The translations under genes were made by a program, and so were the position numbers. DNA of 64,000 nucleotides from Escherichia coli (GTDB lineage Bacteria; Pseudomonadota; Gammaproteobacteria; Enterobacterales; Enterobacteriaceae), in the NCBI RefSeq assembly GCF_003334355.1, contig NZ_QOWP01000019.1. One strand, given 5' to 3'. Below the pieces are notes generated by a model, which was not told the origin of the DNA, made no database searches, and worked only from the letters and a program-made list of their open reading frames with translations. Of the stretch, positions 63,622 to 64,000 are shown one piece after another. The stretch's first letter is position 1. The number at the start of each line of letters is the position of its first letter.

Positions 63622-63825
63622 ATGTACTGGATTATTAACGATAATATCGAGTTCTGGCCTGAGCACCGAAAATTAATATCGGTACATAACGCCGATCTTA
63701 ACGTCGTTCTGACAACGCCAGCCAGTCGATGTTTATCACTTCTACTTGAAGCTTTTCCTGATGTGGTTGCACAACAAGATTTTTTCACCAGAGTCTGGGA
63801 AGAAGAAGGTATGCGTGTGCGGTGA
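63622..63825 (+). pseudogene. yqeI: yqeI (ToxR/CadC-like regulator) truncated by IS1 after codon 66
   Basis: ORF starts MYWIINDNIEFWPEHRKL and runs into the IS1 left end; the stop TGA at 63823-63825 is inside the IS1 terminal repeat. Confidence 0.75.
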
Positions 63826-64000
63826 TGCTGCCAACTTACTGATTTAGTGTATGATGGTGTTTTTGAGGTGCTCCAGTGGCTTCTGTTTCTATCAGCTGTC
63901 CCTCCTGTTCAGCTACTGACGGGGTGGTGCGTAACGGCAAAAGCACTGCCGGACATCAGCGCTATCTCTGCTCTCACTGCCGTAAAACATGGCAACTGCA
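63821..64000 (+). mobile_element. IS1: IS1 insertion sequence, left end (continues beyond the window)
   Basis: ggtgatgctgccaacttactgat terminal inverted repeat followed by the insA start, matching IS1 from recall over all 180 nt. Confidence 0.95.
63876..64000 (+). CDS. insA: IS1 InsA (partial, runs off the window end)
   Basis: GTG at IS1 position 56 followed by codons for [23 protein letters not shown]... Confidence 0.9.

Follow-up and report, generated by a model that had tools for sequence, protein, structure and literature searches.

An IS1-generated yqeI pseudogene at the left edge of the ETT2 island of Escherichia coli

At the 3' end of the 64,000-nt stretch of Escherichia coli DNA analyzed here (the window), the reading frame that begins at the yqeI start codon is soon followed by a stop codon within the left terminus of an IS1 element. 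The locus raises the questions of whether this junction is real, what it leaves of the regulator, and what lies beyond the last nucleotide of the window. The truncated frame occupies positions 63622..63825 on the plus strand and comprises 67 codons (66 native codons and a hybrid CGG) and a TGA stop located in IS1; its 67-aa translation ends in ...EEEGMRVR. The start codon at 63622 is the annotated yqeI start, and in the alignment positions 63622-63820 are identical to nucleotides 1-199 of yqeI from strain OW1E2, which itself equals yqeI of K-12 MG1655 over all 810 nt. Past this point the intact gene reads ATG CGT GTG CCT ACT AAC and the window reads ATG CGT GTG C/GG TGA TGC TGC CAA C (the slash denotes the junction), codon 67 being composed of one yqeI base and two IS1 bases, with the next codon, TGA, contributed by IS1. 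The nine nucleotides adjoining the left end of the element, TGCGTGTGC (yqeI nt 191-199; 63812..63820, plus strand), are the target that is duplicated in a simple-insertion form of the allele found on a public contig (L021, see below). The preliminary description of this locus had proposed that yqeI runs for 66 codons into an IS1 left terminal repeat that supplies the stop, and that yqeI is intact in K-12. The reading frame, the alignment and the terminal repeat match agree on the former, the comparison with the 810-nt K-12 gene confirms the latter, and the alignment to K-12 yqeI that it called for yields 199 identical nucleotides followed by IS1.

The 23-nt left terminal inverted repeat (IRL) of IS1, GGTGATGCTGCCAACTTACTGAT, is matched at all 23 of its positions at 63821..63843 (plus strand), where 0 matches were expected from 100 shuffles. 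From 63821 to 64000, where the window ends, the plus strand carries the first 180 nt of IS1 in the same orientation as yqeI, and all 180 are identical to the start of the 768-bp IS1 of strain ET474. The 5' part of insA (the InsA / InsAB' transposase frame) begins with GTG at 63876, as seen from its translation, and remains open for 41 codons up to 64000 on the plus strand; its start, at nucleotide 56 of IS1, is that of the annotated transposase CDS in ET474. Two marks of the IS1 family, an IRL of ~23 bp and an insA frame that begins ~55 nt inside the left end, are present in the window. Others are a total length of ~768 bp, a programmed -1 frameshift between insA and insB' and a right inverted repeat; the copies at this position in strains PSS-12 and ET474 are 768 bp long with an annotated frameshift. 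IS1 is transposed by its InsAB' transposase. The element generates target duplications of 8-9 bp, prefers AT-rich DNA and causes deletions through local hops (PMC5009759), the deletion routes being local hopping and recombination, or aberrant transposition (PMC5009759, which also gives rates and spectra of such events). The window resembles these classical cases of inactivation and adjacent deletion in its perfect left end, the insA start and the AT-rich target, and the yqeI alleles described below likewise include a simple form with a 9-bp duplication and related alleles in which IS1 borders a deletion and lacks the duplication. Over the 180 nt of the element known from the window, no mechanistic difference from classical IS1 is apparent.

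Intact YqeI consists of 269 residues, of which residues 28-102 form the Pfam Trans_reg_C (winged helix) domain. The winged helix lies at the N terminus, and the protein has in addition one transmembrane helix and a periplasmic domain (residues 186-269) that pairs with lipocalin-like YqeJ, the product of the next gene (PMC9214523). The two proteins are a co-component pair of the ToxR/ToxS and VtrA/VtrC kind, in which the periplasmic domains form a complex, and MarT/FidL of Salmonella SPI-3 has been described as an ortholog of YqeI/YqeJ (PMC9214523). The window shares with this pair the genomic position and the first 66 residues, which are those of K-12 YqeI. The allele differs from it in that Trans_reg_C is incomplete, being cut about mid-domain so that about half of the winged helix is left, and in that neither the transmembrane helix nor the periplasmic domain is encoded by the 67-codon frame, which makes the allele a gene remnant. 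Since the cut falls inside the Trans_reg_C domain, the allele should be null, and from the domain content we can safely infer that it almost certainly is. A fragment devoid of about half of the winged helix, the membrane anchor and the sensor domain would be unable to act as a regulator. In K-12, yqeJ overlaps the 3' end of yqeI by 8 nt, and any yqeJ present downstream of the element would be separated both from its promoter and from this overlap. A polar effect on yqeJ would be in line with the general behavior of IS1. Overall, we assign a probability of roughly 93% to the reading that yqeI is cut by IS1 and that the allele is null. The preliminary description was right to call YqeI ToxR-like and to locate it at the edge of ETT2: it is a membrane-tethered regulator of the ToxR/VtrA kind, encoded where the AT-rich island begins on the left. 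Of the two outcomes that the description had considered for the allele, null or altered, the cut inside residues 28-102 favors the first. Deletion of yqeI in APEC lowers flagella, motility, serum survival, adhesion and colonisation (PMC7552227). The strain from which the window derives is expected to be without YqeI/YqeJ signalling and, at about even odds, without the whole ETT2 island, and the effect of yqeI loss is probably small where the background is commensal-type and ETT2 has already decayed.

The setting of the junction corresponds to the left end of ETT2. The amino-acid permease gene yqeG (409 aa; 60967..62196, plus strand), annotated collinearly in OW1E2, PSS-12 and K-12, closes the stretch of normal GC content ahead of the island, and the intact gene for the LuxR-type regulator YqeH (62656..63288, plus strand), with a 633-nt annotation collinear in OW1E2 and PSS-12, is the first AT-rich gene of ETT2. 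The GC content is ~0.51 upstream, ~0.43-0.46 at yqeG and 0.33-0.37 from ~62000 on, and the fall from ~62000 marks the left edge of the AT-rich island. The gene order at the end of the window, downstream of yqeF-yqeG and then yqeH-yqeI, matches that of K-12 MG1655, OW1E2 and PSS-12. All three signs of the left edge of ETT2, namely the position after yqeF-yqeG, the order yqeH-yqeI and the low GC content, are thus found together. Mutational attrition of the ETT2 island was reportedly described in 2004. That the island undergoes attrition has long been known (PMC3032704, PMC11068852), and the isoform lists examined stress right-end deletions and an insertion in ygeH. The window locus lies in the same island, between yqeG/yqeH and the tRNA gene glyU, and belongs to the same theme of pseudogenes, IS insertions and deletions ranging from several kb to the whole island. 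Our literature search found no paper on this particular yqeI::IS1 junction or on dense IS1 junctions in yqeI. The locus is a yqeI pseudogene (yqeI::IS1) of ordinary IS1 origin in a decaying island, and the kind of event is already known.

Since IS1 is a multicopy element in which draft contigs often end, and since the window stops 180 nt into it, the junction might be artefactual, created at a chimeric contig end or by a repeat mis-join, with yqeI intact in the real strain. The distribution of the junction speaks against this. Among 5,426 complete E. coli genomes, one, that of PSS-12 (NZ_AP027697), contains the identical junction in one piece. An exact look-up of the 67-aa product returned four short public contigs, half of them from ENA metagenome assemblies and the other half from Logan assemblies; each has the same junction and breaks inside IS1. 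Because an identical junction occurs in an independently finished genome and in four independent ENA/Logan contigs of other samples, it is not an accident of assembly; the artefact reading is very improbable, and the assembly chimera that the preliminary description had named as a way in which it could fail is correspondingly unlikely. The 40-nt junction was absent from GTDB representative genomes and from JGI metagenome contigs, and in no complete E. coli genome did the last 601 nt of the window have an unbroken match at 100%. The junction is hence genuine, and although rare it is not private to the window strain. An earlier proposal of a strain-specific insertion is correct insofar as K-12 yqeI is intact, but is too strong given PSS-12 and the four public contigs.

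Two different downstream states are observed at yqeI nt 199. If the window carries a simple insertion, the 768-bp IS1 would be followed by the duplicated TGCGTGTGC, and then by the last 611 nt of yqeI, by yqeJ and by the remainder of ETT2; the sequence predicted after the element is TGCGTGTGCCTACTAAC, the right end of IS1 being ...GGAGTCA(C/T)TACC, followed by TGCGTGTGCCTACTAACACG. In a simple insertion that duplicates 9 bp, the yqeI fragment downstream of IS1 would have GTG66 as its first start codon, and the corresponding 204-aa product was therefore looked up. Contig L021 of the assembly ERZ27269938, recorded at a length of 15.8 kb and analyzed over 3.8 kb, indeed begins with the IS1 right end, TGCGTGTGC and CTACTAAC..., followed by yqeJ, yqeK, ygeF, ygeG and ygeH, and the left junction is found in the same sample on another contig, L006. 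A textbook simple insertion with the 9-bp duplication TGCGTGTGC therefore exists at yqeI nt 199 in ERZ27269938. The strain in that sample is not the window strain, since 51 nt upstream of its yqeI ATG there is an IS5-like element that is absent from the window. The IS5-family end at positions 1-136 of L006 matches the end of ISKpn26 in OW1E2.

The alternative is that IS1 bounds, on the left, an IS1-mediated loss of ETT2, which could have come about through intramolecular transposition or through a local hop and subsequent recombination between the two IS1 copies; the 3' part of yqeI and all or most of ETT2 would then be gone, the right end lying near glyU or elsewhere inside ETT2. This state is represented by PSS-12, where the identical left junction leads into a 768-bp IS1 followed by CAAAATGGGG..., which maps 114 nt before the tRNA gene glyU in the OW1E2 reference; the non-yqeI sequence directly after the right end of the element is CAAAATGGGGAAGTATTACGG. 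Neither a target duplication nor a 3' part of yqeI follows this IS1, and 18.3 kb of ETT2 are missing in comparison with OW1E2. A deletion in the window would also agree with strain ET474, in which the junction is 1 nt away and an 18.4-kb deletion ends 48 nt before glyU. The preliminary description had expected to find, beyond the element, a target duplication and the rest of yqeI: this holds for the allele of ERZ27269938, but not for PSS-12, the relative with the identical junction, where the absence of a yqeI 3' portion that it had regarded as contrary evidence is what is actually seen. Between the right flank in PSS-12 and glyU lie first a 23-nt repeat of the 3' end of glyU and then a 5.6-kb islet with an integrase gene, an arrangement which indicates that the glyU islet is a separate integrative element adjoining the IS1-bordered ETT2 deletion. 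The islet (L008, positions 27590-33325) encodes an integrase, a DUF4145 protein, a KilA-N protein and a hypothetical protein, and contains an IS5. A 59-aa frame spanning the right junction of PSS-12 had no record in the look-up.

To see how often each state occurs, we considered IS1 alleles of yqeI more broadly. Between 50 and 69 complete genomes have IS1 in this orientation in yqeI or at the start of yqeJ, and the left-end junctions fall at no fewer than 24 distinct positions between yqeI nt 192 and 768 (50 of the 5,426 complete genomes, one orientation counted). The resulting junction density is about ten-fold over a uniform expectation, a crude estimate that sets IS1 places against genome length regardless of AT content and ancestry. 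Thirteen alleles from complete genomes were examined, and they comprise five simple insertions with duplications of 8-9 bp and eight IS1-bordered deletions of 3.7-18.4 kb. The simple insertions are those of PSS-04 (junction at yqeI nt 192, 8-bp duplication AAGGTATG), E1 (nt 229, ACATATCCA), L9 (nt 324, GACATTAAC), A21005 (nt 548, GCCATTTTT) and STEC384 (nt 630, AAAGAGTTC). The other eight have retained IS1, show no duplication and continue into a non-contiguous flank, as is characteristic of adjacent deletions: PSS-12 (nt 199, 18.3 kb), ET474 (nt 200, 18.4 kb), KMi025 (nt 274, 3.7 kb), NT1F10 (nt 335, 12.4 kb), HUM3355 (nt 466, 17.8 kb), JSMCR1 (nt 492, 12.5 kb), 2452 (nt 768, 9.5 kb) and MB46 (junction in yqeJ, 17 kb). 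The yqeI::IS1 allele of the window fits the known behavior of IS1 and the attrition of ETT2 as one instance of a recurrent IS-driven erosion of this island. The pattern in yqeI illustrates how IS1 erodes an AT-rich island, with many independent junctions in a gene of 810 nt, most of them bordering deletions of 4-18 kb; the window locus itself is of little importance beyond annotation.

The window was also compared with its relatives. The closest flanks found were those of OW1E2, with intact yqeI and most of ETT2, and of PSS-12; a search with positions 11000-35000 of the window returned no closer relative. Over 63 kb, ~19 SNPs separate PSS-12 from the window, and OW1E2 is equally close outside a single 15-kb tract. 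In this tract, ~22000-37000 (amiC-argA-recD-recB-ptrA-recC), OW1E2 and the window differ at 152 sites, as compared with ~15 in the other 49 kb. OW1E2 has the K-12 allele at 141 of the 152 sites, and the window is about as far from K-12 there as elsewhere, so that the tract looks like a recombination import of ~15 kb of K-12-like sequence into OW1E2. Read in this way, the 141 sites are uninformative on whether the window and PSS-12 are sisters. The idea that PSS-12 is the clearly closer relative was dropped, as the sites that seemed to unite it with the window all lie in the tract at 22-37 kb. The tree of the three strains rooted on K-12 is an unresolved star, in which 6 SNPs are private to the window, 9 to PSS-12 and 8 to OW1E2. 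The IS1 copies at the shared junction are also of different variants, with 13 mismatches in 180 nt. Because of the star tree and these mismatches, PSS-12 is no simple proxy for the window. The common junction may have been inherited, with later gene conversion of IS1 or polishing effects, or may equally represent two independent hits. In PSS-12 another IS1 interrupts fucP, where the alignments on its two sides overlap by 9 bp; fucP of the window is uninterrupted at this place (10274-10282).

These observations bear on both states. A deletion in the window is favored by the eight of 13 surveyed alleles that are deletions, by the junction of ET474 and by the small SNP distance to PSS-12 with its identical left junction; against it stand the different IS1 variant in PSS-12, the three-strain SNP analysis, which does not make the two strains sisters, and the occurrence of junctions at nt 192, 199, 200 and 201 as well as of the simple allele at nt 199, which implies that the spot has been struck repeatedly. 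Since the region around nt 199 has been hit so often, the junctions of the window and PSS-12 may be independent. A simple insertion is favored by the existence of exactly this allele in ERZ27269938 (left junction on L006, right junction on L021), by the five of 13 surveyed alleles of this form and by the retention of yqeI and most of ETT2 in the close relative OW1E2. It is opposed by PSS-12, the sole complete genome to share the exact junction and, alongside OW1E2, the nearest relative found, by the majority of deletions in the survey, and by the distinctness of the ERZ27269938 strain. Given the survey (five versus eight) and the occurrence of both states at the exact junction, we consider a deletion to have an even chance and a simple insertion a chance slightly below that. 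The odds for the downstream state of the window are accordingly about even, a small remainder being left for an artefact or another arrangement.

The repeated hits raise the question of an insertion hot spot. Ends of different IS elements adjoin yqeI within ~15 nt, in the region of nt 181-201 (equivalent to 63802-63822 of the window), on contigs from different public samples. The right end of IS1 adjoins yqeI at nt 191 (L021) and nt 193 (L026), the left end of an inverted IS1 at nt 181 (L024), and an IS2 end, verified against IS2H of K-12, at nt 192 (L025). In a further contig (L023) the end adjoining nt 195 is presumably that of an IS3-like element, an assignment based on the terminal sequence of IS3. 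Near nt 180-200, five or more sites have been hit by IS1, which occurs in either orientation, and further events involve IS2 and the IS3-like element. As the look-up based on GTG66 sees only a narrow stretch, we make no claim of enrichment for nt 181-201. That the 5' third of yqeI (~nt 180-200) truly serves several IS families as a hot spot at the nucleotide level is unlikely; under the same reading, the whole of yqeI may be a preferred entry point of IS1 for repeated ETT2 deletion. A true hot spot would point to a special DNA structure, a bound protein or selection for the loss of YqeI/ETT2, and not to the general preference of IS1 for AT-rich DNA. A single-nucleotide hot spot at nt 199 was also considered and rejected, as the junctions in complete genomes are spread over nt 192-768, to which a hot region is a better fit.

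Lesions of yqeI that do not involve an IS element also occur in public assemblies (contigs L017-L020 and L022). These independent lesions are the loss of a single nucleotide at nt 193 or at nt 159, a stop at W3 (G9A), a deletion that begins at nt 33 and removes ~120 nt, and a stretch of ~36 nt duplicated in tandem near nt 230. Elsewhere in the window, the small RNAs GcvB, OmrA, OmrB and ES036 (Rfam), at 18034-18239, 51221-51308, 51424-51505 and 21255-21297, respectively, are in K-12-like positions and show nothing unusual. Finally, the window has a single initiator tRNA-Met gene at 22725-22801, as does OW1E2, and K-12 and PSS-12 have three in tandem (metZ, metW and metV).
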